From the sequence record OL960577.1: a DNA stretch of 64,000 nt; one strand, 5' to 3'. Position numbers and translations under genes: made by a program. The notes beneath the pieces are model-generated. The model was not told the DNA's origin and did not search any database. It worked only from the letters and a program-made list of their open reading frames with translations. The stretch's first letter is position 1. Each line of letters begins with the position of its first letter. Of this stretch, positions 2,070 to 60,931 are shown in pieces. Source of the DNA: Escherichia phage vB_EcoM_SA35RD.

Positions 2070-2528
2070 TTATAGGATAGTAGTGAGCACCTTATATAAT
2101 GATTTGCCCATCACATATTCCCATTGAGAAGGTTTAATTAAAGCGAACGCATCAAATTCAGGAATCTGTCGTCCGTCTGGGAATGTATGATAGGAATTAC
2201 AAGCACTGTTTCTGAATTGCTCGTGCTCTACAGGGATGGTATATAGGAACAGATGAATATTCTTATTGTCTGAGTAATGATGTTCACCTAGGTCTTTCAG
2301 GAAGGCAGGGTCATATTGTGTAAACCCAGTTTCTTCTTCGCATTCGCGAATAGCGGCTTCAATAGGAGATTCACCGGGCTCGACACGTCCTTTAGGAATA
2401 TCCCAGCGATGAGCTAAAGAACCTTTAGGACGAGAACCAGTTACACGCCCCATGAATAATTCTTTATCTTCGGTAAGGAAAATAATACCGGCTGATAGTT
2501 CTTTCACTTTATTTTTCTTACTCATCAT
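2070..2528 (-). CDS. nudE: Nudix hydrolase (NudE/e.1-like)
   Basis: 152 aa; Nudix box GRVEPGESPIEAAIRECEEETG; position immediately upstream of e as in T4. Confidence 0.85.
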   Translation of the reverse strand: MMSKKNKVKELSAGIIFLTEDKELFMGRVTGSRPKGSLAHRWDIPKGRVEPGESPIEAAIRECEEETGFTQYDPAFLKDLGEHHYSDNKNIHLFLYTIPVEHEQFRNSACNSYHTFPDGRQIPEFDAFALIKPSQWEYVMGKSLYKVLTTIL

Positions 2529-2754
2529 CTCGGTCCCATGATTTGGCCATTAATTCGGACATAAATTCTTCAATGCGCGTTTCTTTAGATGGACTTTCAC
2601 TATTAGAGACCGCAAGTTTGTAATCTGCAATAGGACAGAACATATCAAGATCCGTATTAAGGTCGTCTTTGATTTTTTCTTCTGACACATCTTTATCGTA
2701 TGTGTACAGATAACTATCACATGATTCTGATTTAATGTAAATTGCTATACTCAT
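2518..2754 (-). CDS. hypothetical small acidic protein
   Basis: ORF; start chosen at ATG 2754 (MSIAIY), which overlaps the stop of the upstream gene as ATGA. Confidence 0.5.
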   Translation of the reverse strand: MSIAIYIKSESCDSYLYTYDKDVSEEKIKDDLNTDLDMFCPIADYKLAVSNSESPSKETRIEEFMSELMAKSWDRDDE

Positions 2755-3242
2755 CTCAAATTCCTGCATTCAGTAATAAAACATTCAACTTCGTTATTCT
2801 TGGCCTTTATCTTGTCTTTACGTTCCTGTAAACTACTTTTAACAAGATTAATAATGATGCCTACAGTACCTCCACCAATTATACCGCCAATTATACTTAC
2901 GATAGCAGATGCTAATAAGATAGCAATAATATCAACAAAACCGAAAGAACTCACCTTAGTACTAAAAAACCATACCGACGGTACAAATATAATCCATCCT
3001 GTTATCCATTGGCACTTATTGAAAAACTTTTCAAGATCAGCTTGAGTTGTTCGTATTACTTCATCGATAGGTTGATATCCATTAATGTATCTGTTCACGA
3101 TAATACCTGCTGGTTTGTCGATTTTAAATTCTTGGCAAATACGTTTCACTAAGTAGGATGGACATCCTGTCCAATCCACTGAATAGTACGAAATACCTTC
3201 ATTGCCGTCGTCAATATTAGACCAATATGTTTTGTTAATCAT
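2751..3242 (-). CDS. small membrane protein, FIxECR-tail family
   Basis: 163 aa; hydrophobic segments WIIFVPSVWFF and IIAILLASAIVSIIGGIIGGGTVGIII; C-terminus ECFITECRNLR. Confidence 0.6.
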   Translation of the reverse strand: MINKTYWSNIDDGNEGISYYSVDWTGCPSYLVKRICQEFKIDKPAGIIVNRYINGYQPIDEVIRTTQADLEKFFNKCQWITGWIIFVPSVWFFSTKVSSFGFVDIIAILLASAIVSIIGGIIGGGTVGIIINLVKSSLQERKDKIKAKNNEVECFITECRNLR

Positions 3243-3928
3243 TACCAGCCTTCCATAGGGAATTCCAGATAAACTTGGGCATTGACGCGAATTTCATTGG
3301 TAATCTTTTTAACTCGGTCTGTATTACGAGATACACGTCCGAACCAACGCCATCCATTACTAATTGCACGAGAACCAGTGTGCCATGTTTGCCAATCAAA
3401 CTGAAGAAGAGTACGGTCTGGAGCTTCCCATTTCTCTAGTTCGCCTTTTTCGATTTTTTCGAGGACTTCTTTGTGCCACTGGCGATAGATAAGTTCGCCA
3501 TCAGGAATCTGACTGAACTCTGCAGTTCCTGTTGCAAAATGAGTAGGACACACATCAGCGTTAACAAGACCAAGAATATGTTCAGACAAATAGCGAGGAT
3601 TGTCATAGTCAGGTTGTCCTGCAGTAATAAAATGTTGACCAACCGGAATATCCGGGCGTGGTACGTCATCATGGTGATAACCTGGGATAGCAGGATACCA
3701 ACCAGGCATCAGCATGTGGACTCGTGAATCAAATACAACCTGGTCGGTGTTCCAATCATCTGGCAAGTTCATAATGAAAGAGCGAGTAATAGGACCGCCG
3801 TTATTATAAGCAAATTCTAAACTACAGTTGAAGAACATAGGCTCGTTCTTGATTTTATCATTAGAAATACCGCCGGCAAAACCACCTACTGCACGAGCTT
3901 GACTATTAAACACTTTAGAACTATTCAT
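3242..3928 (-). CDS. hypothetical protein, 228 aa
   Basis: Long ORF with SD GAGGAAAA; no confidently recognised domain. Confidence 0.6.
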   Translation of the reverse strand: MNSSKVFNSQARAVGGFAGGISNDKIKNEPMFFNCSLEFAYNNGGPITRSFIMNLPDDWNTDQVVFDSRVHMLMPGWYPAIPGYHHDDVPRPDIPVGQHFITAGQPDYDNPRYLSEHILGLVNADVCPTHFATGTAEFSQIPDGELIYRQWHKEVLEKIEKGELEKWEAPDRTLLQFDWQTWHTGSRAISNGWRWFGRVSRNTDRVKKITNEIRVNAQVYLEFPMEGW

Positions 3929-3929
3929 A

Positions 3930-4235
3930 TTATTTTCCTCGACATTCTTTAATGAAATTTTCTAGATTGGTAGATTCAATAGCTTTTTTACGAGCTTCTG
4001 CGTGTTCTTCTTCGGACAATTTACGTTTATAATTGACCCAGACATTATGGTCGAAACCAGTCGTGGCATATAATAACAATGCTCCAACGAATAGCAAAAA
4101 CGGCGATAAGAATACAAAACCAGGAACACCATCCATATCGTAAGCCTTTTGTAATACTGCAACAGAAAGAGTTGCGTAAAAAGGTGATGCAAGTATTGTT
4201 AAAAGACCAATTCGATTGGTTTCTGTTAATTTCAT
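3930..4235 (-). CDS. small membrane protein, FIxECR-tail family
   Basis: 101 aa; two hydrophobic helices; C-terminus ENFIKECRGK; SD GAGGAG; early promoter at 4267..4296. Confidence 0.6.
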   Translation of the reverse strand: MKLTETNRIGLLTILASPFYATLSVAVLQKAYDMDGVPGFVFLSPFLLFVGALLLYATTGFDHNVWVNYKRKLSEEEHAEARKKAIESTNLENFIKECRGK

Positions 4236-4266
4236 AATATTCTCCTCATGTTTTAATAGGACTACT

Positions 4267-4296
4267 ACTATAACATAGTCCTATCAGTTTGTACAC
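4267..4296 (-). promoter_or_regulatory. early promoter cassette with palindrome around the -10 (PeSL-like)
   Basis: -35 GTGTAC, 18 bp, -10 TATAGT; 8-bp inverted repeat ATAGGACT/AGTCCTAT (4257..4264 and 4278..4285). Confidence 0.5.
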
Positions 4297-4497
4297 TTAT
4301 TTTGACATTTCTTCGATGTCACGACGATACCCATCACGAACTTCACGAAGAGCTTCAAGGCCACACATAGGCTCGATACCAGTAATGTGAACTTGATTAA
4401 TCTGATACTCTACATCTTCTAACTGAGCGAAAACATAACGACGTTCTGCTGCACAACCAGGTTTAGCTTTACCGAAACGTTTATTCAAAGTAGTCAT
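4297..4497 (-). CDS. hypothetical small protein
   Basis: Start at ATG 4497 (MTTLNKRFGK) with SD GGAG, downstream of early promoter 4536..4565. Confidence 0.45.
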   Translation of the reverse strand: MTTLNKRFGKAKPGCAAERRYVFAQLEDVEYQINQVHITGIEPMCGLEALREVRDGYRRDIEEMSK

Positions 4498-4535
4498 TTT
4501 TATATCTCCATTCACTCATTTGTTTTGATAGGTCT

Positions 4536-4565
4536 ATAGTATCAACAACTACAGACCTTGTAAAC
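4536..4565 (-). promoter_or_regulatory. early promoter cassette (PeSL-like)
   Basis: -35 GTTTAC, 18 bp, -10 TACTAT; flanking inverted repeat AGGTCT/AGACCT. Confidence 0.5.
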
Positions 4566-4577
4566 TGTTTTGTGAAA

Positions 4578-5534
4578 TTATTTGAAAGGTTTTACCATAT
4601 GAAAGTTTTGTTTGAAACGCTTGACGTAATCGTCGTGTCCTAAGCTTTGGTACATACTTACTACTTTGCTATAATTTTCCCAAGCGAACTCACGGAACCA
4701 TCCTGATGTGATTGATGTACAGACCTTTTCAAGGGCCATCATAAAACTATCACGTGGATGGATTTTAAAGTCGTTAGGAATCTGAGAACGTTCTAATGCT
4801 AGTACACATGATTCTTCATATACACCGGCCAATTTGACCATTTCTGGTAATGATTCGAACTTCTCGCGTGAGGTCATGACTTCAGAACCATCTTTCATGT
4901 AAAATGTATAAGCCGGACGGTCTGTTAGTGCAATAGCTTCGTGAATAGTATCATGGTCATATGTATAGATGTCATCTTTAAAGAACGCACTTTTAGAAGT
5001 GTCAAGAACAGGGTGAGCATAGTTCAAGGTTTCTTTCTGGCGTTTCAGCATAATTTCAGTAAGTTCATCGTTCAGTTTAACACCTTTACCACGAAGATAC
5101 TGAATATGGTTCATAGTCTTTAAAAAGAATGGATTATTTTTCTTGAAACGATGAGACATCTTAATTGCAAGACATATCTCAGGAGTTGCCCAGTAAAACC
5201 CGTTCAAACGGTCTTTAGTCAAATTTTTCTTGGCGTATTTTAAAAGGTCATAAGAAGACGTGAAATCTTCAGGAGTGAGTTCACCGACTAATTCACGGAC
5301 ACTAGTGATTGCCGGAACAATATATGCTTCAAAATGAGTTTCGCGTCCATTATGGAAGCATTTGAAAACTTGGACATCAGGGTTATCTTGGTGAACATAT
5401 ACACCCATCATTTGATTTTTGAATGCATTCCAAGAACCTTGGTCCGCAATAAAGTCCCAATCACTATTTTTAATAGCGCTAGAATCAATAAGACCGTGAT
5501 AGTGAAGTGCACGAGAACCAATAACTAACATCAT
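4578..5534 (-). CDS. hypothetical protein, possible nucleotidyltransferase fold
   Basis: 318 aa; N-terminal LVIGSRALHYHG...DWDF resembles the GS...DxD motif of Pol-beta-type nucleotidyltransferases (ANT-like); fold call is tentative. Confidence 0.65.
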   Translation of the reverse strand: MMLVIGSRALHYHGLIDSSAIKNSDWDFIADQGSWNAFKNQMMGVYVHQDNPDVQVFKCFHNGRETHFEAYIVPAITSVRELVGELTPEDFTSSYDLLKYAKKNLTKDRLNGFYWATPEICLAIKMSHRFKKNNPFFLKTMNHIQYLRGKGVKLNDELTEIMLKRQKETLNYAHPVLDTSKSAFFKDDIYTYDHDTIHEAIALTDRPAYTFYMKDGSEVMTSREKFESLPEMVKLAGVYEESCVLALERSQIPNDFKIHPRDSFMMALEKVCTSITSGWFREFAWENYSKVVSMYQSLGHDDYVKRFKQNFHMVKPFK

Positions 5535-5562
5535 AATATTTTCCTCGGATTAATTCATTAAC

Positions 5563-5802
5563 TTAAATTTCACGACATGCGATATTATATTCATCCCAGA
5601 GGTCATCATGTGAAGCCTCTACCAATGGAACGATTGTACCGTTTATGTCTTCATTATAAGGGCAAATTGTACAGTGCGCATCTTCGAATCGGATGCCTTT
5701 GTGTTCAGATTTTTTATAACGCATATCGAATATCTTTGCAAACTTTTCACGAGTAATGGTTTTACCAACCACTTTGGTTCCGATACTTTCGTAATAAATC
5801 AT
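5563..5802 (-). CDS. hypothetical small protein
   Basis: Start at ATG 5802 (MIYYES), which has SD GGAG; ends ...NIACREI; early promoter at 5831..5860. Confidence 0.5.
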   Translation of the reverse strand: MIYYESIGTKVVGKTITREKFAKIFDMRYKKSEHKGIRFEDAHCTICPYNEDINGTIVPLVEASHDDLWDEYNIACREI

Positions 5803-5830
5803 TGTGGACTCCATTTGTTTTGATAGGACT

Positions 5831-5860
5831 ACTATAACATAGCCCTATCTTGTTGTAAAC
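5831..5860 (-). promoter_or_regulatory. early promoter cassette (PeSL-like)
   Basis: -35 GTTTAC, 18 bp, -10 TATAGT; inverted repeat GATAGGGCT/AGTCCTATC around the -10. Confidence 0.5.
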
Positions 5861-5864
5861 TGTT

Positions 5865-6062
5865 TTAGCAAGAATAACTAGATGATACCCAGCCTTGAAC
5901 AGTGATACTATTGTGGGATAATGAGATCGCGTCCTGGAGATTCAGACCTGCGTTATCTTCAATCCATAATGTAACTTCTTCGCGTTCTTCTGTTGCAATT
6001 TGGAACAGGTTTTCCAGAGCAGCTACTGCCGTACGTACAGCACAATCTAATTCACGAGACAT
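5865..6062 (-). CDS. small protein, GWVSSS..C-tail family
   Basis: 65 aa; C-terminus QGWVSSSYSC; SD AAGGAA. Confidence 0.55.
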   Translation of the reverse strand: MSRELDCAVRTAVAALENLFQIATEEREEVTLWIEDNAGLNLQDAISLSHNSITVQGWVSSSYSC

Positions 6063-6071
6063 ATTGTTTCC

Positions 6072-6344
6072 TTAGCAAGTGTGAGAAGATGCGACCCAAC
6101 CACCAGTTTCGAGGCTCAGGTTGTAGTCGTATTGGTAAACGTCAGCCCATTCAGCATAGCCATTTTTTGTACAACGTTCAAGATCGGCTTTAAGATGTCC
6201 GGGTGAATGATAGGTTCCACCCATACCGTAAGCTGGATACAAGTCGAATGTTGTGTTTTGTTTATCAGCAATTTCTTTGGCAGCCTCAATAGCTGCATAG
6301 ATTTTTGCTACAGCTTCAGCCAGTTCGGTTTGTTCTTTAGACAT
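6072..6344 (-). CDS. small protein, GWVSSS..C-tail family
   Basis: 90 aa; C-terminus GGWVASSHTC; shares KEIAD...YG.GGTYH core with the next paralog. Confidence 0.6.
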   Translation of the reverse strand: MSKEQTELAEAVAKIYAAIEAAKEIADKQNTTFDLYPAYGMGGTYHSPGHLKADLERCTKNGYAEWADVYQYDYNLSLETGGWVASSHTC

Positions 6345-6353
6345 AATGATTCC

Positions 6354-6659
6354 TTAGCACAACGCAGAAGACGAAACCCAAGCACCTTCAGTAATAACGT
6401 AACCATTACCTTCACGCTTAACATCGCCACCATTATTTTCAATTTCATCTTTCATCCACTGGGATACGATTTCACCCTTAGGATAATAAGTACGACCGCT
6501 ACCATAATCACCTACAGAAAATGATACGGCATATTGGTCTGCGATCTTTGTTGCTTCTTCTTCGATACGTTCAGCTTGATTCAGAAGTTTATAAATTGCA
6601 TCTGAAGCGGATTTGGCATTATTAAACTCTGGTACTTTAATTTCAATAATCTTACTCAT
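6354..6659 (-). CDS. small protein, GWVSSS..C-tail family
   Basis: 101 aa; C-terminus GAWVSSSALC; ATG overlaps the upstream stop (ATGA). Confidence 0.6.
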   Translation of the reverse strand: MSKIIEIKVPEFNNAKSASDAIYKLLNQAERIEEEATKIADQYAVSFSVGDYGSGRTYYPKGEIVSQWMKDEIENNGGDVKREGNGYVITEGAWVSSSALC

Positions 6660-7015
6660 TTTCTACATTCCTTAATAAAGTTTTCGATTGTTTCATTTTC
6701 ACGTCTAGCTAGGAGTTCATTATAACTAATCATTTGAGAAGCGTAAACCTTTTTATTTTTCTTGTTATGGTTTATAAAATCGTAGTAAAAATAGACTACA
6801 GTACAAAATGATGCGATGGATGCAAAGGCTTGGGTATACCGTAAGTCCTGCCATTGGTCTGTGAATCCACCAGTGTTCCCTATAAATCCTAACACAACGC
6901 CGTCAATAAGAAATCCAACTAATCCAAAGGCAAATCCCATGCCAATACTCATAATAAAAATTAGAATGTTCTCACCAAGAGAAGGCCATACGGTTAAGAG
7001 TTGAGGCTTTTGCAT
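6656..7015 (-). CDS. small membrane protein, FIxECR-tail family
   Basis: 119 aa; hydrophobic helices; C-terminus IENFIKECRK. Confidence 0.6.
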   Translation of the reverse strand: MQKPQLLTVWPSLGENILIFIMSIGMGFAFGLVGFLIDGVVLGFIGNTGGFTDQWQDLRYTQAFASIASFCTVVYFYYDFINHNKKNKKVYASQMISYNELLARRENETIENFIKECRK

Positions 7016-7389
7016 CTTATTTCCTTAACGAATTCCATAGCTTCTTCATATTCATACTTTTTAATAGCTTCATCATACTGAGCTTGGGCTTTTGCGCACT
7101 GAACTTTCCATTCTCTTAATCGGGCTCTGTGATGACGGCCTTGGTGCCAATATCCCACCCAATTAATAGGCATTAATAAAAACGGTACAATAAGTGGTGC
7201 GACGAACATTAATGAAAATGCTGCATCAGACGATATAACTTCACTAGAATCTAAAACAGCTCCTATAATCATAAAGATTAAAAATGCTAAAGCTAAAATA
7301 GGGCCAAATAGTACTTCATTTGGGATTAATTTACGCTTGTATTCATACGCCCAGGGCTTACTTGGCATGTATAGGGTTGGCTTTGACAT
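6994..7389 (-). CDS. small membrane protein, FIxECR-like tail
   Basis: Start at ATG 7389 (MSKPTLY) directly after the conserved GAATGTAGAGAAT junction motif; two hydrophobic helices; tail MEFVKEIRCK. Confidence 0.55.
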   Translation of the reverse strand: MSKPTLYMPSKPWAYEYKRKLIPNEVLFGPILALAFLIFMIIGAVLDSSEVISSDAAFSLMFVAPLIVPFLLMPINWVGYWHQGRHHRARLREWKVQCAKAQAQYDEAIKKYEYEEAMEFVKEIRCKSLNS

Positions 7390-7954
7390 ATTCTCTACAT
7401 TCCATAATAAATTGCTCAAGGATTAAATTGTTAGTGAAATTAGGACTAACAACCATAGTTTCATAAAGCGCATCAATAGCACTTAAAGCATCAACTCTTT
7501 TAAGCAAAGGCTTGCCTTCATACATAGTTTCAGAATCGACGATTAAAGTGAAGTAGTATTTTTTATTATTGGCCAGAACTTCTGTATCAATATAAAACAT
7601 GTTAGACCTTAAAAGCTTGTCTCTAAAGCCTACGTAATCATCTGAACGTTCACTGATATATTCCCATTCGGTGTTTAAACAACAAACAGACCACGTAGGA
7701 GCAACGAAATCAGTGAATCTAATATCATGGTCTGCAACTAGTTTAGCAATAGCTCCGATATCATGAATCATAATACCTGGGGCTAATAAAGATTTTCGGT
7801 TATTTGCATATTCAGTTGTCTCATAAGAAGACGACCAGTACCATTTACGTCCAGTTGCAACATATCGTAATGAATCAACTAAAGACGTAGGTGGATTTAC
7901 CTTATCTCGGAACTCTTCGAACATTGAGTCAATATCATTATTTTGGTTTCGCAT
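7358..7954 (-). CDS. hypothetical protein with FIxECR motif near C-terminus
   Basis: Start at ATG 7954 with SD AAGGAG; ...EQFIMECREYVKANPIHAK; 3' end overlaps the next gene by 32 nt. Confidence 0.6.
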   Translation of the reverse strand: MRNQNNDIDSMFEEFRDKVNPPTSLVDSLRYVATGRKWYWSSSYETTEYANNRKSLLAPGIMIHDIGAIAKLVADHDIRFTDFVAPTWSVCCLNTEWEYISERSDDYVGFRDKLLRSNMFYIDTEVLANNKKYYFTLIVDSETMYEGKPLLKRVDALSAIDALYETMVVSPNFTNNLILEQFIMECREYVKANPIHAK

Positions 7955-7973
7955 GTTAACTCCTTTATTATCC

Positions 7974-7995
7974 AAAAGGAGGACCGGGGTCCTCC
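7974..7995 (-). terminator. rho-independent terminator
   Basis: GGAGGAC-CGGG-GTCCTCC hairpin followed by TTTT on the minus strand, just after the stop of the 8004..8597 gene. Confidence 0.6.
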
Positions 7996-8003
7996 GTATT
8001 ATT

Positions 8004-8597
8004 TTATTTCAAAGAGTTAATATATTCTTGTACATCAGCAGAAGTGGTTTCGACACCTGCTGGAGTGCCATTGAACGTTTCAACCCGAGTCAGAGTGTCT
8101 TCGATATCAACCTTAGTCAGTGCAGCGATTTCAATTACATCATCGGCCGTAGAGATACCAAGGGCATTAGCTGCTCGAGTTTCACGAATGTATTCGAGTT
8201 TGATTGCCAGATTCTGACGAGCATCATCAAGTTCAACCACCTTACGAGCAATTTCAATTCGCATAGCGGCATACCCGTCAGCTTTTGTATTAAGTTGTTC
8301 GGCAGTTCGACGATACAGAAGACCAAGCTTAGCATGCATGGTAACATCTTGTCCTTCAGCCAGGAGCTTACGAATTTCACGTTCCTTAGAAGCGGCTTGC
8401 TTGTTCTTTTCAATAACAAGTTCGCGAATACGTTTTTCTTCATTAATAGATTTAACAGAAGCCGTTTTTAGTTCTTTGATTTGGGTAATCAACTTATCTG
8501 CAGCTGCGTTATACTGTTCTTCGACAGTCAGATTTTTAGCCATAGCAGTACCCAGTTTAGTGCGAATGAATTCAACAAGTTTCTTCAGTGTGTTCAT
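8004..8597 (-). CDS. coiled-coil protein, PspA/IM30-like (tentative)
   Basis: 197 aa; heptad-rich and Ala/Glu/Lys/Arg-rich; layout resembles PspA as recalled; early promoter at 8639..8668; terminator at 7974..7995. Confidence 0.6.
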
Positions 8598-8638
8598 ATT
8601 ATTACCTTTCAATTGGTGGTTTATTATCCAACGAGAGC

Positions 8639-8668
8639 ATTATACTCTGCTCTCAAGAGTTTGTACAC
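8639..8668 (-). promoter_or_regulatory. early promoter cassette (PeSL-like)
   Basis: -35 GTGTAC, 18 bp, -10 TATAAT; inverted repeat GAGAGC/GCTCTC (8633..8638 and 8649..8654). Confidence 0.55.
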
Positions 8669-8917
8669 TTATTTGTACGAATTAATAATCTCTTCCATTT
8701 TATCCAGAACATGGATATCGATTATACGAGGAAGTGCCGAAAGATTAGAACCGTCGAAAGATTTAAGGTCTTCCAAAATAATATTTTCAATGGCCTTTAA
8801 AGCTTCCGCAGATTCTGATGCAGAATTAAATTCAGGAATTTCTCCAAAAAGACGTAAGAATGAACCAAAGTATTCTGCGGCGATTTCTTTAGCTTGTTCG
8901 ATATCAGACTTAAACAT
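8669..8917 (-). CDS. hypothetical small acidic protein
   Basis: Start at ATG 8917 (MFKSDIEQ), chosen because the promoter -10 at 8946..8951 lies inside the longer ORF. Confidence 0.5.
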   Translation of the reverse strand: MFKSDIEQAKEIAAEYFGSFLRLFGEIPEFNSASESAEALKAIENIILEDLKSFDGSNLSALPRIIDIHVLDKMEEIINSYK

Positions 8918-8945
8918 TTTGTTTTCCTCATTTGTTGGTGGAGTA

Positions 8946-8975
8946 ATCATATCACCATCCTTGGCGTTTGTACAT
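8946..8975 (-). promoter_or_regulatory. early promoter candidate (weaker match)
   Basis: -35 ATGTAC, 18 bp, -10 TATGAT. Confidence 0.35.
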
Positions 8976-9202
8976 TATTTTTTAATCAAGTTGACATAAA
9001 ATTCTGCATCTTCAGGGTGCATGCCTTCGCAGTATTCTTCAACCATGAACTTCTTAACAGCTTCATAAGGACCACTCAGATTAAGCTCAGTTGTCCAGAA
9101 CTTGGAATCTTGGACTGAATCGATATGAACTTCAGGGTGTCGGTTGCGAATAACTTCTTCGGTGTATTCATAATCAACGACATCAATACTAACTTTAGCC
9201 AT
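8975..9202 (-). CDS. hypothetical small protein
   Basis: 75 aa ORF; SD GAGGAAAA; promoter at 9231..9260. Confidence 0.55.
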   Translation of the reverse strand: MAKVSIDVVDYEYTEEVIRNRHPEVHIDSVQDSKFWTTELNLSGPYEAVKKFMVEEYCEGMHPEDAEFYVNLIKK

Positions 9203-9230
9203 TTTATTTTCCTCTTGATTTGATGTGATT

Positions 9231-9260
9231 ACTATAACATAAACTTACTTAGATGTAAAT
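9231..9260 (-). promoter_or_regulatory. early promoter candidate
   Basis: -35 ATTTAC, 18 bp, -10 TATAGT. Confidence 0.4.
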
Positions 9261-9413
9261 TATTTCAACGTCACCTTTAGCTGCTTTATAACCTTCAGCC
9301 CAAGATACAACAGAGTTTTTATCCGAGGATTCAAATTCAGGCATTGGACTTTCACCAATATTCACACAGTATGTTTCTTCATTTTCATCGAACCAAATAA
9401 TTAAAGTAGTCAT
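9249..9413 (-). CDS. hypothetical small protein (54 aa, absent from the ORF track)
   Basis: Own translation MTTLIIWFDENEETYCVNIGESPMPEFESSDKNSVVSWAEGYKAAKGDVEIIYI; SD AGAGGAG; promoter at 9444..9473. Confidence 0.45.
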   Translation of the reverse strand: MTTLIIWFDENEETYCVNIGESPMPEFESSDKNSVVSWAEGYKAAKGDVEIIYI

Positions 9414-9443
9414 TTTGTTTACTCCTCTGTAGTTGATAAGTCT

Positions 9444-9473
9444 ATAGTATCACCATCCTTGGTGCTTGTACAT
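9444..9473 (-). promoter_or_regulatory. early promoter cassette, part of the 47-bp module shared with 45531..45577
   Basis: -35 ATGTAC, 18 bp, -10 TACTAT; block 9407..9453 is identical to 45531..45577. Confidence 0.5.
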
Positions 9474-9480
9474 CATTATT

Positions 9481-9786
9481 TTATTTTTTCCAACTCAACA
9501 ACTTGTAATGTCCTTCATTCGTACGTGGTTTATCCCAAGAAATACTAATATATGATTCGCTGTCAATAGAAGTCGCCGGGTTTTTCTCTACCGTAAGACC
9601 TTCACTTTCCAGCCATTCAATAGTATTTGCGCATAAATCGGAAGAACACCTCATCGGGAACCGGCAAGATTTTTCACCTTTAGATGCTGCATCGTACATC
9701 TTTTCCAAAATACGCTTTTGCACGTTTTTAAAAATAGTTTCAGCAGATTCTTCAGATTTTTTATTCAGTTCAGTGTAAAGACTCAT
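9481..9786 (-). CDS. hypothetical small protein
   Basis: 101 aa; promoter at 9815..9843; several Cys residues. Confidence 0.55.
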   Translation of the reverse strand: MSLYTELNKKSEESAETIFKNVQKRILEKMYDAASKGEKSCRFPMRCSSDLCANTIEWLESEGLTVEKNPATSIDSESYISISWDKPRTNEGHYKLLSWKK

Positions 9787-9814
9787 AACATTTTCCTCTA
9801 TGGTTGATAAGTCT

Positions 9815-9843
9815 ATAGTATCATGTCCTTAGAAGAAGTAAAC
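9815..9843 (-). promoter_or_regulatory. early promoter cassette
   Basis: -35 GTTTAC, 17 bp, -10 TACTAT; downstream TAGACTTATCAAC core shared with 9444 and 45568. Confidence 0.5.
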
Positions 9844-9876
9844 ATCTTTATGAAATATTTTTATGCCCTAGATACC

Positions 9877-9903
9877 AAAAGGCCCCAACCATAAGGAAGG
9901 GGC
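9877..9903 (-). terminator. rho-independent terminator
   Basis: GGCCCC/GGGGC stem followed by TTTT on the minus strand, after the 9910..10374 gene. Confidence 0.55.
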
Positions 9904-9909
9904 ATTCTA

Positions 9910-10374
9910 TTATTTAATTTGTTTAGCAGACCAGATACGGTCTTTAATAAGTTTTTGGATATCTTCAACATACTCAAGGCTATGAGCGTGAGGATTATCT
10001 TTGAAGCTATGTGCTCGTGCCAGTTTCTGGCCTTCTGTTTTGATTACTAAAAGCTCTTTAAGAATTGCTTCATACTTAGAAATAATTCCTTTGGCGATAT
10101 TTTTTTCTTGAGCTGCTTTAGGGTCTGTTTTTGGCGCAGGTGCTTTACCTGTAGCTTTCTGGAACAATTCACCTGATGCAGCTAGGCTTTTAAAAACTCG
10201 GCTAACAGTATTAGCATTAGTAAAACCTTCGGCTTTAAAATCTCTAATAAAACGGAAACGTTCTTCATCAGAGGCGTCTTTGTAAGAATATTTACCTGCT
10301 TGAATTGCTGCAATCGCAGCGGCTTTTACATCTGAACTAGATTGTTCAGTCAAAAATTCAGCGTATGATTTCAT
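9910..10374 (-). CDS. internal-protein-like (CTS-bearing) basic protein, 154 aa
   Basis: Starts MKSYAEFLTE (CTS-like); Lys/Ala-rich; flanked by rho-independent terminators at 9877..9903 and 10419..10447. Confidence 0.6.
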   Translation of the reverse strand: MKSYAEFLTEQSSSDVKAAAIAAIQAGKYSYKDASDEERFRFIRDFKAEGFTNANTVSRVFKSLAASGELFQKATGKAPAPKTDPKAAQEKNIAKGIISKYEAILKELLVIKTEGQKLARAHSFKDNPHAHSLEYVEDIQKLIKDRIWSAKQIK

Positions 10375-10418
10375 GTTGCTTTTCCTAAGTTAATTAACTT
10401 ATCTATTTATTATTATGC

Positions 10419-10447
10419 CAAAAAGCCCCGACCTTTCGGAAGGGGCT
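10419..10447 (-). terminator. rho-independent terminator closing the tRNA/structured-RNA transcription unit
   Basis: AGCCCC-loop-GGGGCT hairpin followed by TTTTT on the minus strand. Confidence 0.6.
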
Positions 10448-10454
10448 AAGCCTT

Positions 10455-10750
10455 GCGGCAACCTTGTCGGGGTTTCCACCTACTAAGGCAAGTGTTTGTA
10501 CGAAACGCCGGGATTCGAACCCGGTTATCAAGTAGTTGACGCTACTCAATATTTTTAAAAGGCCATATCTCGACCATATCCGAACGTTCCGTCAAAAACG
10601 CTACTCGGCTTACGGCAAAGATATTTCCTCGAATCGATAATTCGGTGCGCCGTTTCTGCTGTGATGTAAGGGGATATTAACAAATCGTAAAGATTTATTA
10701 AGACCAGTCCTTACTCAGGGAACATCAGTCCGACGACTTACCGGTAGCGA
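10455..10750 (-). ncRNA. candidate small stable RNA region (T4 rnaC/rnaD-like position), tRNA-like T-arm at 10508..10524
   Basis: About 300 bp without a credible ORF between the 10760 gene and the terminator at 10419..10447; contains CCGGG-TTCGAAT-CCCGG plus a 7-bp acceptor-like strand, but I could not complete a cloverleaf. Confidence 0.3.
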
Positions 10751-10759
10751 CCCGGCTTC

Positions 10760-11104
10760 TTATTTTGGCATATCATCAATTTGCTCTCGACGCCGACGCC
10801 ATAGATTAATCGCTTCATTAACACATTCGGCGTTTGGTATATGACGGCAATAATATAATGATTCGCGTTTCTGGAACCGATGTTGCAATGGAATTTCGTT
10901 TAAAAGGTCTTTACGGTCAAAGTATTCAAAACTAGTTAACCCAGAACGATTTTTAATGAACTTCCAATGTCCAAATTCATTTTGAACATAGATGTAATCG
11001 GCATGCTGATACAGCAAATTAATCAATCGATGAGAAATAACTGTATCATATTCGTTAAAATAAAACGTTAAATCATGAACTACCAGATAAATATTGCCTT
11101 TCAT
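10760..11104 (-). CDS. hypothetical protein between the tRNAs and the structured-RNA region
   Basis: Start at ATG 11104 (MKGNIYLVVHDL) with SD GAGGAAAA; the longer 11152 start would overlap tRNA-Arg. Confidence 0.45.
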   Translation of the reverse strand: MKGNIYLVVHDLTFYFNEYDTVISHRLINLLYQHADYIYVQNEFGHWKFIKNRSGLTSFEYFDRKDLLNEIPLQHRFQKRESLYYCRHIPNAECVNEAINLWRRRREQIDDMPK

Positions 11105-11122
11105 ATTTTCCTCACTTGAAGT

Positions 11123-11199
<77 letters not shown>

Positions 11200-11205
11200 A
11201 ATATA

Positions 11206-11279
11206 TGACCCAGACCAGATTCGAACTGGTAACCTTTCCCTTATGAGGGGACTGCTGCTAACCATTGAGCTACAGGGCC
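11206..11279 (-). tRNA. tRNA with anticodon CAU (Ile2 or Met type), no encoded CCA
   Basis: Manual fold: acceptor GGCCCTG/CTGGGTC (one U-U mismatch), anticodon loop CTCATAA, T-arm ACCAG-TTCGAAT-CTGGT; D-stem only 3 bp, so slightly irregular. Confidence 0.6.
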
Positions 11280-11341
11280 TAAATAACTTTCTATTATGAA
11301 AGGCACTTTAGAGCACCTTTGGTAATAGAGGGTATGAATTA

Positions 11342-11366
11342 ATAATATCACATTATTCTTAAAGCA
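11342..11366 (-). promoter_or_regulatory. candidate MotA-dependent middle promoter upstream of the tRNA genes
   Basis: Minus-strand MotA box TGCTTTA (11360..11366), 12 bp, -10 TATTAT. Confidence 0.35.
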
Positions 11367-11874
11367 AATCAATCATTTTAACAGTCGGCAAAACGATTTC
11401 TTCTTCAATATAAGCGAATTCAACACGTTCAACTACACGCAAGAAATCATAGTCGTAGTATTCAGAAGCATAGCCAAGAATATCAATAAGGCCTTTGGAT
11501 ACCTCATCACCTTTCACAAAGAACAGGTCGAATACACGGGCTTCGTCTTCTTCAGATTTATCGCCAAGGTCAACTTCAATACCAAAGACCTTTTTAATGA
11601 ATTCCGGCTGGAGCTGGTCAGAGAACAGTCCTTCAACCAGATATTCGTAGATAATAAGCGAGCAACGACCGAATGGCGTATTACCACAGTAACGTTCGGC
11701 TTTAGTGCTGGAATGACGACTCTTAAATTTCTTCAAGAGATATTTAAACTGTTGGAGCTCATGCTCTTCTACACCAAATAATGTTTTGGTTTTATAGTTG
11801 TCACCGTCATTTTCCCAAGTAGTGACATCAATTACGTAACCCTTAGGAATTGTACTGCCTAAACAAATATTCAT
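11359..11874 (-). CDS. hypothetical protein, 171 aa
   Basis: ORF upstream of the tRNA pair; acidic; no recognised motif. Confidence 0.6.
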   Translation of the reverse strand: MNICLGSTIPKGYVIDVTTWENDGDNYKTKTLFGVEEHELQQFKYLLKKFKSRHSSTKAERYCGNTPFGRCSLIIYEYLVEGLFSDQLQPEFIKKVFGIEVDLGDKSEEDEARVFDLFFVKGDEVSKGLIDILGYASEYYDYDFLRVVERVEFAYIEEEIVLPTVKMIDLL

Positions 11875-11878
11875 TTAC

Positions 11879-12169
11879 TCACCTTACCATATTAATGTAA
11901 TTATATTCAATGCAACGCAATTTCAAAGGATTCTTGAAAATATCATATTCAAGAGGGCCTTTTTCTGTTTCAATAAAGAAATCAAAGTTAACTGTGTTAA
12001 ATTTATCATCTTCACATAGTAATTTAACCTGTGAAGATGAACGGTCGATATAAACCTTTTCAACCTCAAAGTTAGTCAGAATACCGTAGTCATCGACTAG
12101 TGCTTTAGCTGCACGTTGATCGCTTTCATATCCATTCTCAATGGACGATACTTTAGCATAAAGAATCAT
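11879..12169 (-). CDS. hypothetical protein, 96 aa
   Basis: ORF tightly packed with neighbours. Confidence 0.55.
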   Translation of the reverse strand: MILYAKVSSIENGYESDQRAAKALVDDYGILTNFEVEKVYIDRSSSQVKLLCEDDKFNTVNFDFFIETEKGPLEYDIFKNPLKLRCIEYNYINMVR

Positions 12170-12528
12170 GAATGTTCCACCACTTCAAAAGTATGTGCAC
12201 TGACAATCTGGTACCAGTCAAAATTTTCTTCAGCATTTTTGTAGATTTCACGAAGAGCTTCAACAGTTTTTCCTGTAGCAACAAGGTCGTCAATACCACC
12301 AAGAGGATAACAGTCATAACCAGCAAACAGAAGGAAATTAATAGTTTCTGTAGGTTCTTGATGCAGTGTACCATTGTCATCGACTACTTCAAAGAACATA
12401 TAACCAGGCGATTTAGATTTAATCCAAGCCCATGCTTGAGCTGCTGAATCAAATGGTTTGCGTATCAAACGACAATCAGGATCTTTAGAAGGATTTGCTT
12501 CAAAATCCGCATATACGTGATATTTCAT
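12166..12528 (-). CDS. hypothetical protein, 120 aa
   Basis: Start at ATG 12528 (MKYHVYADFE), abutting the upstream stop. Confidence 0.5.
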   Translation of the reverse strand: MKYHVYADFEANPSKDPDCRLIRKPFDSAAQAWAWIKSKSPGYMFFEVVDDNGTLHQEPTETINFLLFAGYDCYPLGGIDDLVATGKTVEALREIYKNAEENFDWYQIVSAHTFEVVEHS

Positions 12529-12529
12529 T

Positions 12530-12736
12530 TTACTCACCTTTTGCAATTTTATCCATAACAATAGCGATTAAACCGATTAGAAATGCTACTACCAATGAGA
12601 TAGAATTTTCGGTTGTTGTCAGTAGTCCGCAAATGAATCCTACAAACATCGAAAAACTAAAAGCCATTGAAGCAATTACTACAGCAACATTACGAATCAG
12701 TTCAGCGCGTTTCATTTTATTTCTCCATTTACTCAT
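12530..12736 (-). CDS. small membrane protein, 68 aa
   Basis: Basic N-terminus then VAVVIASMAFSFSMFVGFICGLL and LVVAFLIGLIAIVM helices; promoter at 12754..12783. Confidence 0.55.
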   Translation of the reverse strand: MSKWRNKMKRAELIRNVAVVIASMAFSFSMFVGFICGLLTTTENSISLVVAFLIGLIAIVMDKIAKGE

Positions 12737-12753
12737 TTTGTTTTGATAGGACT

Positions 12754-12783
12754 ACTATAACATAGTCCTATCGTGTTGTAAAC
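12754..12783 (-). promoter_or_regulatory. early promoter cassette (PeSL-like)
   Basis: -35 GTTTAC, 18 bp, -10 TATAGT; inverted repeat GATAGGACT/AGTCCTATC (12745..12753 and 12764..12772). Confidence 0.5.
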
Positions 12784-12786
12784 TAC

Positions 12787-13074
12787 TTACAGAAGAGTTT
12801 TTGCAATAATTTTAAGCTGAGCTACAGAAATGTGCTTAGTTTTAAACAGTGCAGTCTCTTCAGCCGGAGAGATAACAATAGTAGCGCCATCTTTCTTAGC
12901 AGACCATCCATCCCCTAAGTAAACAGTACCTTTTACTTCTTCGCCGTCAACCAGACTAATCATTGGTTTACCCTCACGTCCTTTATTTGCTTTAATAACT
13001 TCGGAAGTAAGGGTTGCTTCGGTTAGAGTAGAAACGTTAGCATCAGGTGATATAAATTCTTTATAGGTTTTCAT
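12787..13074 (-). CDS. ipI: internal protein I-like (CTS-bearing), 95 aa
   Basis: Starts MKTYKEFIS; sits immediately downstream of 57B as ipI does in T4; promoter at 13109..13138. Confidence 0.6.
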   Translation of the reverse strand: MKTYKEFISPDANVSTLTEATLTSEVIKANKGREGKPMISLVDGEEVKGTVYLGDGWSAKKDGATIVISPAEETALFKTKHISVAQLKIIAKTLL

Positions 13075-13108
13075 TTTATTTCCTTGAGGTCGTTTATTTG
13101 ATAGGATG

Positions 13109-13138
13109 ATAGTAACACGTCATCATCCTTATGTAAAC
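13109..13138 (-). promoter_or_regulatory. early promoter cassette (PeSL-like) upstream of the ipI-like gene
   Basis: -35 GTTTAC, 18 bp, -10 TACTAT; inverted repeat GGATGAT/ATCATCC. Confidence 0.5.
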
Positions 13139-13151
13139 TGTTTTGTGAAAA

Positions 13152-13837
<686 letters not shown>

Positions 13838-45567: not shown

Positions 45568-45597
45568 ATAGTATCACATACCAAATACGTTGTAAAC
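45568..45597 (-). promoter_or_regulatory. early promoter cassette within the late-gene block
   Basis: -35 GTTTAC (45592..45597), 18 bp, -10 TACTAT (45568..45573). Confidence 0.5.
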
Positions 45598-48324: not shown

Positions 48325-48521
48325 TTCTTCACCTTTTTGTTAATCAAACGTTTACGGTATACAACTTTTTCTTTTGCTTTAAACTTTGACCGAGCTGTCT
48401 CGGCTTTAGTCCATAGTAATCCAACTTCTTTAGGTTGTAAACCAATTTTTTGAGCAATTTCTACGAATGAAAATCCCGCCTCATGTAATGTATAAACTTC
48501 AACTTCAGCTCTCATAATCAA
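48321..48521 (-). CDS. hypothetical small basic protein (24.3 position)
   Basis: 66 aa ORF with Lys-rich C-terminus. Confidence 0.45.
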   Translation of the reverse strand: MIMRAEVEVYTLHEAGFSFVEIAQKIGLQPKEVGLLWTKAETARSKFKAKEKVVYRKRLINKKVKK

Positions 48522-60901: not shown

Positions 60902-60931
60902 ATAGTATCACACATCCATGTGTTTGTAAAC
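60902..60931 (-). promoter_or_regulatory. early promoter cassette
   Basis: -35 GTTTAC, 18 bp, -10 TACTAT; overlaps the alt stop codon. Confidence 0.45.

Follow-up and report, generated by a model that had tools for sequence, protein, structure and literature searches.

The interval between nudE and the ipI-like gene, positions 2518-12736 of the window (the whole 64-kb stretch of DNA analysed), is very probably the RB69-type (Mosigvirus) version of the hyperplastic region that separates the same two genes in T4. The array is real but ordinary, a known variable accessory region in which repeated promoter cassettes are the sites of gain, loss, and exchange of small early genes. As an array it is not novel; RB69 (2003) has nearly the same one.

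Gene content of the array

All coding in the interval lies on the minus strand and comprises 24 protein genes, numbered g1 to g24 in the order of transcription, from 12736 down to 2518. This agrees with an earlier note on this DNA, which had counted about 25 small genes, almost all encoding fewer than 230 aa: the products range from 54 to 318 aa and 23 of the 24 fall below that size, the exception being g19. Four RNA genes that the note did not mention also lie inside the span. Two of these, rnaC and rnaD, are homologues of the T4 stable RNAs species 1 and species 2, and no Rfam family matched them. The genes and their neighbours are as follows.

13152-13607, neighbour of the array: Acb1 (PF23474)
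12787-13074, flank: ipI (PF11634, E 6e-50)
12530-12715, minus: g1 (trna.4), 61 aa, two TM-like segments
12166-12528, minus: g2 (trna.3)
11879-12169, minus: g3 (trna.2)
11359-11874, minus: g4, 171-aa acidic protein, RB69ORF151c family; missing from PTE-Eco05 and RPN187
11206-11279, minus: tRNA-Met(CAU)
11123-11199, minus: tRNA-Arg(UCU)
10760-11104, minus: g5, 114 aa, between tRNA-Arg and rnaD
10644-10763, minus: rnaD, 106/119 identical to T4
10499-10637, minus: rnaC, 137/139 identical to T4
9910-10374, minus: g6, 154-aa basic protein; module replaced in RB69, HX01, LH01, and JQD51
9481-9786, minus: g7, 101 aa; longer 167-aa allele in some relatives
9249-9480, minus: g8 (ORF 9249-9413, 54 aa) with cassette; missing from LH01 and JQD51
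8975-9266, minus: g9 (ORF 8975-9202), frd.3 homologue with promoter cassette; Pfam Phage_FRD3, 60% to T4 frd.3
8669-8974, minus: g10 (ORF 8669-8917, 82 aa) and its promoter (8918-8974), together a rare inserted module with the direct repeat GTACAAAC at its borders
8004-8597, minus: g11 (e.6), 197 aa
7358-7954, minus: g12 (e.5)
6994-7389, minus: g13 (e.4)
6656-7015, minus: g14 (e.3)
5865-6659, minus: tandem trio of paralogues, g17 (65 aa), g16 (90 aa), and g15 (101 aa), each with the C terminus G-x-W-x-S-S-x-x-C; phrog_899/phrog_4882
5563-5802, minus: g18, 79 aa; second in-frame ATG, with a GGAG SD, taken as the start; phrog_3723 matches residues 5-83
4578-5534, minus: g19, 318-aa predicted nucleotidyltransferase, Pfam DUF7277 and DUF7275, RB69ORF134c family
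4297-4497, minus: g20, 66 aa; single-gene module missing from RB69, HX01, and PTE-Eco05
3930-4235, minus: g21, 101-aa two-TM membrane protein; C terminus ...NFIKECRGK
3242-3928, minus: g22, 228-aa predicted Fe(II)/2-oxoglutarate dioxygenase, RB69ORF132c family
2751-3242, minus: g23 (RB69 "e.2"), 163-aa membrane protein, two TM-like segments, phrog_2203; C terminus ...FITECRNLR
2518-2754, minus: g24, 78-aa acidic protein, RB69ORF130c family, phrog_2900; 11-nt overlap with the nudE start
2070-2528, flank: nudE (NUDIX)

Genes g14, g13, and g12 (6656-7954) overlap and are translationally linked. The NUDIX and PF11634 matches bear out the two flanks named in the earlier note, and its description of the ORFs as unrecognisable is broadly true. 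Pfam matched only g9 and g19, and a PHROG search with all 24 proteins assigned no function, 23 of the families being of "unknown function" and that of g23 simply "membrane protein." A scan of 10 genes against NCBIfam found no match, and PADLOC, likewise run on 10 genes, returned one marginal match only (g5, PDC-S64, E 0.008). Five of the products are small membrane proteins.

Relationship to T4 and RB69

The array shares with the T4 e.2-e.8/tRNA/trna.2-4 region (NC_000866, 67.0-73.9 kb) its position between nudE and ipI, its strand, and homologues of e.3-e.6, trna.2-4, rnaC, rnaD, and tRNA-Arg. Nevertheless, tblastn of the 24 proteins against 127 kb of T4 (1-77 kb and 119-169 kb) found homologues for only 9 (e.3-e.6, part of e.2, trna.2-4, and frd.3) and none for the other 15, so that most of the ORFs are not one-to-one counterparts of T4 e.2-e.8. 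The earlier note had called those T4 genes characterised, but in T4 they are annotated as hypothetical. Identity of the syntenic e genes to T4 is 88% for e.6, 47% for e.5, 54% for e.4, and 35% for e.3; the N-terminal 53 aa of g23 are 37% identical to e.2. T4 carries eight tRNAs, segB, e.7, and e.8, whereas the array has two tRNAs and no counterpart of the other three, and it has ten genes where T4 has e.2 only. Furthermore, tRNA-Arg and rnaD, adjacent in T4, are separated here by g5, and the frd.3 homologue is displaced, T4 frd.3 lying at 146.6 kb beside frd.

The closest known interval is nudE-ipI of RB69 (NC_004928, RB69p130-p154), and likewise that of APCEc01, HX01, and O157 typing phage 3. 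The likeness to RB69 extends to gene order, the tRNA-Arg/tRNA-Met pair, the flanks, and 88 to 100% protein identity for 20 of the 24 genes. At the DNA level the array is 96.9% identical to Mosigvirus APCEc01 over 97% of its length, and in 111 to 117 database phage records the coverage of the array reaches 80% or more. It differs from RB69 in having g20 and g6, as well as g10, which is also absent from APCEc01 and four others; g15 is intact here but split in the RB69 record, and RB69 has e.8 and ORF148c/149c, which the array lacks. The exact combination of genes was not found in any single database phage examined.

Among seven Mosigvirus genomes, g4, g6, g8, g10, g16, and g20 vary by presence or absence and g2, g7, g14, g15, and g24 by allele, and seven genomes (six Mosigviruses and RPN187) have seven different gene sets. 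This variation within the genus, together with the small number of T4 homologues, identifies the architecture as that of a T4-type hyperplastic region, as the earlier note had proposed. At the same time, about half of the genes form a stable genus backbone: about 13 of the 24 are at least 88% identical in all six compared Mosigviruses, and plasticity is thus concentrated in a few hot spots.

Putative early promoters, terminators, and PeSL-like cassettes

The minus strand of 2518-13151 was searched with the T4-early pattern T[TG]TAC[AT]-N16-18-TAYWNT, using 300 dinucleotide shuffles as control. Nine matches were observed against 0.24 +/- 0.5 in shuffles, which substantiates the many early-promoter cassettes described before; the entire window holds 16, including these nine. 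All nine are on the coding strand, immediately 5' of an ORF with an SD. Together with a near-match at g10 (TGTACA-N17-TATGAT), ten cassettes precede g1, g7, g8, g9, g10, g11, g18, g20, and g21 (9 of the 24 genes) and ipI. They include repeat families with 61 to 93% identity. Terminators between genes, also claimed earlier, are represented by three intergenic hairpin-plus-T-run sites on the coding strand (7978-7995, 9872-9903, and 10415-10446), though a generic terminator scan was overall not above chance (8 found versus 6.2 +/- 2.6). Promoter and terminator function is assigned from consensus and position and is to be read as putative in the following list.

12716-12786, minus: g1 early promoter cassette, TTTACA-N17-TATAGT, -10 enclosed by a perfect 10-bp stem; z -7.7; breakpoint 12783
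11340-11368, minus: middle promoter candidate of MotA-box type, TGCTTTAA-N12-TATTAT, 5' of the tRNA genes; pattern match only
10415-10446, minus: terminator hairpin after rnaC
9481-9909, minus: g7 unit, comprising g7, its promoter (-35 at 9842), and an upstream terminator hairpin (9872-9903); classical PeSL stem-loop-then-promoter layout
8598-8668, minus: e.6 (g11) early promoter cassette, TGTACA-N17-TATAAT, hairpin; z -3.9; breakpoint 8674
7978-7995, minus: terminator-like hairpin, GGAGGACCCCGGTCCTCC + TTTT, between e.6 and e.5
5803-5864, minus: g18 early promoter cassette, 90-93% identical to the g1 cassette (repeat families D1/D2); z -6.0
4498-4572, minus: g20 early promoter cassette, TTTACA-N17-TACTAT, hairpin; z -5.1; breakpoint 4559
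4236-4296, minus: g21 early promoter cassette, TGTACA-N17-TATAGT, -10 within a 12-bp hairpin, then SD and ATG; z -5.3; deletion breakpoint 4296

These elements resemble the promoter-early stem-loop (PeSL) cassettes known from T4-type hyperplastic regions (Arbiol et al. 2010, PMC2839356; Comeau et al. 2014, PMC4122927). Like those, they are repeated intergenic units in which a sigma-70-like early promoter is combined with an SD and an ATG, they are concentrated in a variable region, and they are found at indel junctions. The -35 and -10 forms fit the published PST/T4-type consensus TTTACW-N17-TAYWAT (PMC4122927), and the stem arms, being of the AGNA...TCNT type, agree with the published description as well. 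There is one difference. The stem in 6 of the 10 cassettes lacks a T-run and surrounds the -10 hexamer, and thus is not an upstream terminator; the published figure legends put the stem-loop upstream of the promoter, an order seen here only in the g7 cassette.

Module exchange

Comparison with other Mosigvirus genomes delimited four modules. That of g10 is bounded by GTACAAAC -35 boxes, and that of g20 is enclosed by the -35 boxes at 4296 and 4559. The g6 module is flanked by 81% identical copies of a terminator (9872-9903 and 10415-10446), and LH01 shows a swap of g16 whose junctions, at 6079 and 6350, are repeats of the C-terminus-plus-RBS type. Of the 24 breakpoints in all, 9 map to repeated cassettes or terminators, which make up 6.9% of the sequence (p about 2e-5), but this value makes a special role in recombination look better supported than it is, since promoters are the sole conserved sequence flanking non-homologous genes and aligned breakpoints will tend to fall there whatever the mechanism.

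Conceivably, the array might instead be an essentially stable, vertically inherited RB69-lineage block, its cassettes alike through constraint on strong early promoters and its differences the product of ordinary homologous recombination, at any point in flanking conserved genes, when relatives infect the same cell. The stable backbone described above would fit, as would the conservation of g19 and g22 far outside the genus and the occurrence of the same consensus in T4 early promoters elsewhere. However, the g10 and g20 junctions lie exactly inside -35 boxes and those of g6 inside duplicated terminators, and no two of the seven genomes share a gene set. Moreover, g10 occurs at 97% identity or above in six E. 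coli phages only; about 140 other T4-like phages, mostly of Klebsiella/Enterobacter, carry relatives below 60% identity (about 50% among the matches listed), implying acquisition as a module. We therefore regard a stable block as improbable.

Even less credit is due to the idea that homing endonucleases of the seg/mob type, rather than promoter cassettes, mainly drive the variation, as at the T4 segB/tRNA locus. T4 does have segB within the homologous tRNA cluster, homing or HNH endonucleases are annotated in this region of some relatives, and in PTE-Eco05 an additional ORF separates tRNA-Arg from tRNA-Met. Yet no ORF in 2518-12736 matches endonuclease families in Pfam or PHROGs, and the junctions that could be mapped fall on repeats of promoters or terminators.

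We thus favor exchange at the cassettes. The array is very probably a leftward-transcribed pre-replicative set of 24 small protein genes, two tRNAs, rnaC, and rnaD, in which at least nine strong early promoters of the T4 type may serve host sigma-70 RNA polymerase as start sites, with one MotA-type middle promoter ahead of the tRNAs and three hairpin terminators dividing the array into blocks. Each promoter cassette spans roughly 60 to 75 nt; its -35 (GTTTACA or GTGTACA) is separated by 17 nt from an extended -10, and a conserved leader with SD and ATG follows. To judge from the comparison, single promoter-plus-ORF modules are inserted, deleted, or exchanged via recombination in cassettes, terminator copies, and gene-end/RBS junctions, each carrying its own expression signals and leaving its neighbours undisturbed. 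This corresponds to the modular-shuffling mechanism described for PeSLs by Arbiol, Comeau, and Krisch. In RB49 and phi1, inverse PCR has detected mini-circles bounded by cassettes.

Predicted functions

The earlier note had also seen in the array a site where host-takeover and anti-defence genes accumulate. That part was borne out for none of the genes in the array; the known anti-defence proteins here are its neighbours, ipI and Acb1. For the genes other than the two predicted enzymes and the five small membrane proteins, the context suggests accessory functions, in host takeover, exclusion, or counter-defence, as the most likely.

The remote-homology and structure predictions advised in that note pointed to enzyme folds for two products. 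The fold and the conserved catalytic residues of g19 predict a MenT/ANT-like nucleotidyltransferase, with only 8 to 13% sequence identity to minimal nucleotidyltransferases of the MenT, AbiEii (DUF1814), and ANT types and no match to the Pfam NTase families. Unlike these, g19 has a distinct C-terminal domain (DUF7275), all-helical and highly conserved, and it is an early gene of a phage, for which no antitoxin partner is evident.

On similar grounds, g22 is a predicted Fe(II)/2-oxoglutarate dioxygenase of a family that lacks a Pfam model. No Pfam, NCBIfam, or PDB sequence match was obtained, even with a 60-sequence profile. Its AF2 model has a pLDDT of 94.2, every top PDB match in Foldseek is an Fe/2OG dioxygenase, and H85, D87, H183, R194, and R198 are invariant among 60 diverse homologues. 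Like the PhyH-like dioxygenases (proline hydroxylase H11, GriE, EvdO2, HygX, and EctD), it would have a double-stranded beta-helix fold in which the H-x-D...H triad is invariant and an Arg is placed to act as a 2OG ligand, although TM-scores are only 0.3 to 0.4 and identity 10 to 20%. The g22 family is essentially phage- and prophage-borne, and both g19 and g22 are widespread in phages. The predicted nucleotidyltransferase and dioxygenase constitute new annotation.

Position and gene content of the array

The array between nudE and ipI is already known from a well-sampled phage genus, and the mechanism by which it varies has been published. All of its coding lies on the minus strand, and we number its protein genes g1 to g24 in transcription order, from position 12736 down to 2518. 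The features needed most often are the following.

2518-12736, minus: the array, between nudE and ipI
3242-3928, minus: g22, 228 aa, a predicted Fe(II)/2OG dioxygenase
4578-5534, minus: g19, 318 aa, a predicted nucleotidyltransferase
5865-6659, minus: g17, g16 and g15, tandem paralogues of 65-101 aa
13152-13607, minus: Acb1, the gene next past ipI

The array is 96.9% identical, across 97% of its length, to APCEc01, a Mosigvirus of the RB69 group. At least 80% of it is covered by 111-117 phage records, and some part is common to about 850. The RB69 reference genome has almost the same set of genes, in unchanged order, in this interval:

RB69: RB69ORF130c, e.2, ORF132c-139c, e.3-e.6, frd.3, ORF145c-150c, tRNA-Arg, tRNA-Met, ORF151c, tRNA.2-4, ipI
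T4 counterpart (67.0-73.9 kb): nudE, e.2-e.8, rnaC, rnaD, eight tRNAs, segB, trna.2-4, ipI

Its genome position is fixed as in T4 and RB69, among conserved core or near-core genes, with e and nudE (NUDIX) on one side and ipI (PF11634), 57B (Acb1), 57A and gene 1 on the other. Acb1 is an anti-CBASS nuclease (PF23474, E 2e-58) and the homologue of T4 57B, whose homologues many records still label "RNA ligase" or hypothetical. From these neighbours, ipI and Acb1, we infer that array genes may serve host takeover or anti-defence.

The 24 protein genes, whose starts were set by Shine-Dalgarno (SD) sites and annotated relatives, encode 54-318 aa; g19 alone exceeds 230 aa. Every protein has a PHROG match, 23 to families of "unknown function" and g23 to a family labelled "membrane protein" and nothing more. 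The only Pfam families in the array are FRD3 and, both in g19, DUF7277 and DUF7275. An NCBIfam scan of 10 array proteins gave zero matches, and the single marginal PADLOC match (g5, E 0.008) was disregarded. Segments resembling TMDs occur in g1, g13, g14, g21, and g23. The array is thus a dense run of small ORFs mostly without assigned function, as the earlier note had described it: 23 of the 24 are under 230 aa, and none has a PHROG-assigned function. That note missed four RNA genes, namely, tRNA-Met, tRNA-Arg, rnaC, and rnaD. The last two, which match their T4 counterparts at 137/139 and 106/119 positions, respectively, occupy an apparent 385-nt gap at 10375-10759; they came from alignment to T4, and an Rfam gathering scan of positions 1-16 kb returned the two tRNAs and nothing else.

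Relation to T4

When the 24 proteins were compared by tblastn with T4 1-77 kb and 119-169 kb, a homologue was present for 9 and absent for 15. Syntenic homologues were found for g1 (trna.4, 83%), g2 (trna.3, 41%), g3 (trna.2, 85%), g11 (e.6, 88%), g12 (e.5, 47%), g13 (e.4, 54%), and g14 (e.3, 35%), while T4 e.2 matches residues 1-53 of g23. The ninth, g9, matches frd.3 (Pfam Phage_FRD3), which in T4 sits at 146.6 kb. T4 e.7, e.8, and segB have no counterpart in the array. Most ORFs are therefore not conserved one to one with T4 e.2-e.8: e.3-e.6 are represented in full and e.2 only in part.

We also considered whether g15-g17 are paralogues of e.2 and rejected this, since tblastn places e.2 at the N terminus of g23. 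On the minus strand of T4 (L002), at about 67472-67640 between e.2 and nudE, there is an ORF without annotation, 53 codons long or longer, directly before nudE; it ends in NFITECRKLK and corresponds to the C-terminal end of g23, the RB69-type e.2 protein. In T4, e.2 may represent a longer, g23-type gene that is split.

Variation within Mosigvirus

Comparison with six Mosigviruses (APCEc01, PTE-Eco05, LH01, HX01, JQD51, and RB69) and with RPN187 separated a stable from a variable set. All six share 13 genes at 88% identity or more, RPN187 being excluded from this count, and 11 of the 24 vary among the six; RPN187 differs again. Six of the variable genes (g4, g6, g8, g10, g16, and g20) are present or absent, and five (g2, g7, g14, g15, and g24) have alleles that are divergent, truncated, or split in some genomes. 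Between 2 and 10 tRNA genes are present, depending on the genome. The gene g10 is missing from all six Mosigviruses; only six E. coli phages carry it at 97% identity or above, and about 140 other T4-like phages, chiefly of Klebsiella and Enterobacter, have it at below 60% identity (about 50% among the matches listed). Gene content hence differs between close relatives, and strongly so between genera. With T4 homologues for only 9 of 24 proteins and 11 of 24 genes variable within Mosigvirus, the earlier reading of the array as a T4-type plastic region is supported.

The tRNA block forms a hot spot for insertions of its own, as with segB in T4. The gene g5 (10760-11104; see also L006 10978-11463) lies between tRNA-Arg and rnaD, which are neighbors in T4; in PTE-Eco05, another extra ORF separates tRNA-Arg from tRNA-Met; and RPN187 carries a 10-tRNA cluster at this place.

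Promoter cassettes and sites of exchange

A repeated cassette is common to the upstream regions of g1, g7, g8, g9, g10, g11, g18, g20, g21, and ipI. In order, its elements are GTTTACA or GTGTACA, a 17-nt spacer, TGnTATAGT/TACTAT/TATAAT, a conserved leader (ATCAAAACAAATGAGT.AATGGAGA..), an SD site, and ATG; together they make up a sigma-70-like early promoter whose 3' end carries SD and ATG. A regular expression for T4 early promoters matched the coding strand of the region 9 times, against 0.24 +/- 0.5 expected from dinucleotide shuffles, and the entire 64-kb window just 16 times, so that the promoter cassettes claimed previously for many ORFs are real by this measure. As for terminators between genes, three intergenic sites on the coding strand (7978-7995, 9872-9903, and 10415-10446) combine a hairpin with a T-run. 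A generic terminator scan was overall not above chance; the hairpins at 9872-9903 and 10415-10446, however, are copies of each other, 81% identical, on either side of g6 (repeat family D15).

The late motif TATAAATA was not found in the region. A candidate middle promoter of the MotA-box type, the sole such pattern match in the region, lies at 11340-11368 on the minus strand (TGCTTTAA, 12 nt, TATTAT); it shares bases with the end of g4 and lies immediately ahead of tRNA-Met. Further copies of the early cassette occur in other parts of the window, at 45568-45596 (minus), 1238-1266, 48413-48441, and 60902-60930. At 45596, the -10 box and leader are identical (GATACTATAGACTTATCAACTACAGAGGAGTAAACAAAATG) to those of the g8 cassette, 36 kb away.

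Several exchanged modules end in these repeated elements. One edge of the g10 module is the -35 box of its own promoter, GTACAAAC, and the other is that octamer in the e.6 promoter; the edges of the g20 module are the -35 boxes at 4296 and 4559, and those of the g6 module are the two terminator copies. In LH01, one copy of the g15-g17 set is exchanged for a divergent allele; the edges of this g16 swap are repeated "...GWVxSSxxC-stop-RBS-ATG" junctions (repeat family D8). Altogether, 9 of 24 breakpoints fall in cassettes and terminators, which make up 6.9% of the region (binomial p 2e-5), although the test errs on the generous side, since alignments between otherwise unrelated modules have to end at conserved promoters. 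The cassettes are thus associated with indel and replacement junctions, a pattern as described for modular shuffling in hyperplastic regions mediated by promoter-early stem-loops (PeSLs) (Arbiol et al. 2010, PMC2839356; Comeau et al. 2014, PMC4122927), in which neighboring cassettes recombine and mini-circles are excised (PMC2839356). The promoter form likewise fits the PST/T4-type PeSL consensus.

A hairpin around the -10 box

In 6 of 10 cassettes, the -10 hexamer is enclosed by a 7- to 12-bp stem (z -2.9 to -7.7 versus shuffles), and four unrelated stem sequences occur among the six. In T4, 13 of 42 early-promoter pattern matches have a hairpin at the -10 box. In both sets, the -10 box occupies the loop or the 3' arm of a strong hairpin (z down to -8.6), and the stems have no sequence relation to one another.

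Hairpin cassettes in the window: 13137, 12782, 8667, 5859, 4564, 4295
Examples in T4: 73938, 20611, 57989, 146142, 133330

The transcript of a cassette starts within the 3' arm, so the hairpin can form only in read-through RNA or in DNA. In the PeSL papers (PMC2839356, PMC4122927), the stem-loop is placed "just upstream" of the promoter, whereas here that order holds for the g7 cassette only (hairpin 9872-9903, -35 box at 9842); in six others, the hairpin spans the -10 box and lacks a T-run, and three have no hairpin. The stem arms, AGGA...TCCT, nevertheless fit the published AGNA-loop-TCNT consensus of PST/T4-type PeSLs, and the -10-enclosing hairpin and the PeSL stem-loop may be the same element described differently. 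The Hinton review of T4 early promoters describes extra conserved positions, and a search of it by terms brought up nothing on dyad symmetry; neither there nor in the PeSL papers did we find a role stated for a hairpin enclosing the -10 box.

Small paralogues and shared C termini

The paralogues g15-g17 (see also L007 4303-4830) share an invariant extreme C terminus, G-x-W-x-S-S-x-x-C. Their family comprises 51 clusters only, every one of them short and from a T4-like or jumbo phage contig.

A second C-terminal motif, FIxECR, is found in g12, g14, g21, and g23 and, loosely, in g13. In the wider form (N/E)F(I/V)xEC(R/K), it ends g12 (7358), g13 (6994), g14 (6656), g21 (3930), and g23 (2751), and T4 e.5 as well; four of these five array proteins are small membrane proteins. 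The motif might have been a by-product of the SD site of the next gene. We rejected this explanation: in g14, g21, and g23, the SD coincides with different codons of the motif, and conservation is thus at the protein level. The shared end suggests either distant paralogy or a common C-terminal interaction peptide.

Two predicted enzymes

The g19 family is widespread, with 2,241 homologue clusters and 732 phage records from many families. Residues G6, S7, D25, D27, and E69 are invariant in 40 diverse members, as are many residues of the helical C-terminal half, the DUF7275 domain. The AlphaFold model (pLDDT 91.9) has a Pol-beta-like nucleotidyltransferase fold with G[GS], [DE]x[DE], and a third carboxylate, and we read g19 as a predicted minimal nucleotidyltransferase, similar in fold to MenT and ANT enzymes. 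Enzymes of the MenT/AbiEii type are toxins with a cognate antitoxin that nucleotidylate tRNA acceptor ends. No antitoxin partner was identified for g19, and the genes around it vary between phages.

For g22, the family comprises 1,290 clusters (626 representatives at the 50% level) and 471 phage records, with H85, D87, H183, R194, and R198 invariant in 60 diverse members. Its model (pLDDT 94.2) shows a DSBH fold with the HxD/E...H iron triad and a basic residue for the 2OG C5 carboxylate. The best PDB matches are all Fe(II)/2OG dioxygenases, including proline hydroxylase H11, GriE, EvdO2, HygX, and EctD, and on this model we read g22 as a probable member of that class. Sequence libraries (Pfam, NCBIfam, and PDB) do not recognize it, nor did a 60-sequence profile find anything in the PDB. 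Pfam scans of every g19 and g22 alignment member at E up to 1 gave no nucleotidyltransferase, HD, or 2OG family, and phmmer searches of the PDB sequences with g19, g22, g4, and g12 had no match below E 0.06.

An Aeromonas T4-like phage keeps the order of g19 and g22, with variable small genes in between. Strict coupling of the two was rejected: homologues of g22 stand alone in prophage-like contigs, and the phage distributions of the families differ. A functional link is only a possibility. We consider it unlikely, if conceivable, that the two genes, in the same order from Escherichia to Aeromonas T4-likes, would encode two steps of one undescribed early-infection pathway that modifies or repairs RNA, tRNA, or a nucleotide and might, for instance, counter a host defense targeting tRNA or nucleotides. 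The study of RB69 DNA hypermodification assigns no gene of the nudE-ipI interval to its pathway (PMC13326640).

Significance

As a discovery, the array matters little: the literature on hyperplastic regions and promoter cassettes in T4-type phages goes back to 2007-2014, and GenBank has contained this particular array from the RB69 genome onward. We contribute fold-level annotations of two proteins, a map of the mobile modules, and some minor curiosities of sequence. The annotations concern two widespread phage families that are "hypothetical" in public records, the DUF7277/DUF7275 protein as a predicted nucleotidyltransferase and a Pfam-less protein as a predicted Fe/2OG dioxygenase. The map separates a genus-wide backbone from mobile single-gene modules (g4, g6, g8, g10, g16, and g20), and these modules are sensible first targets for host-range or anti-defense screens.
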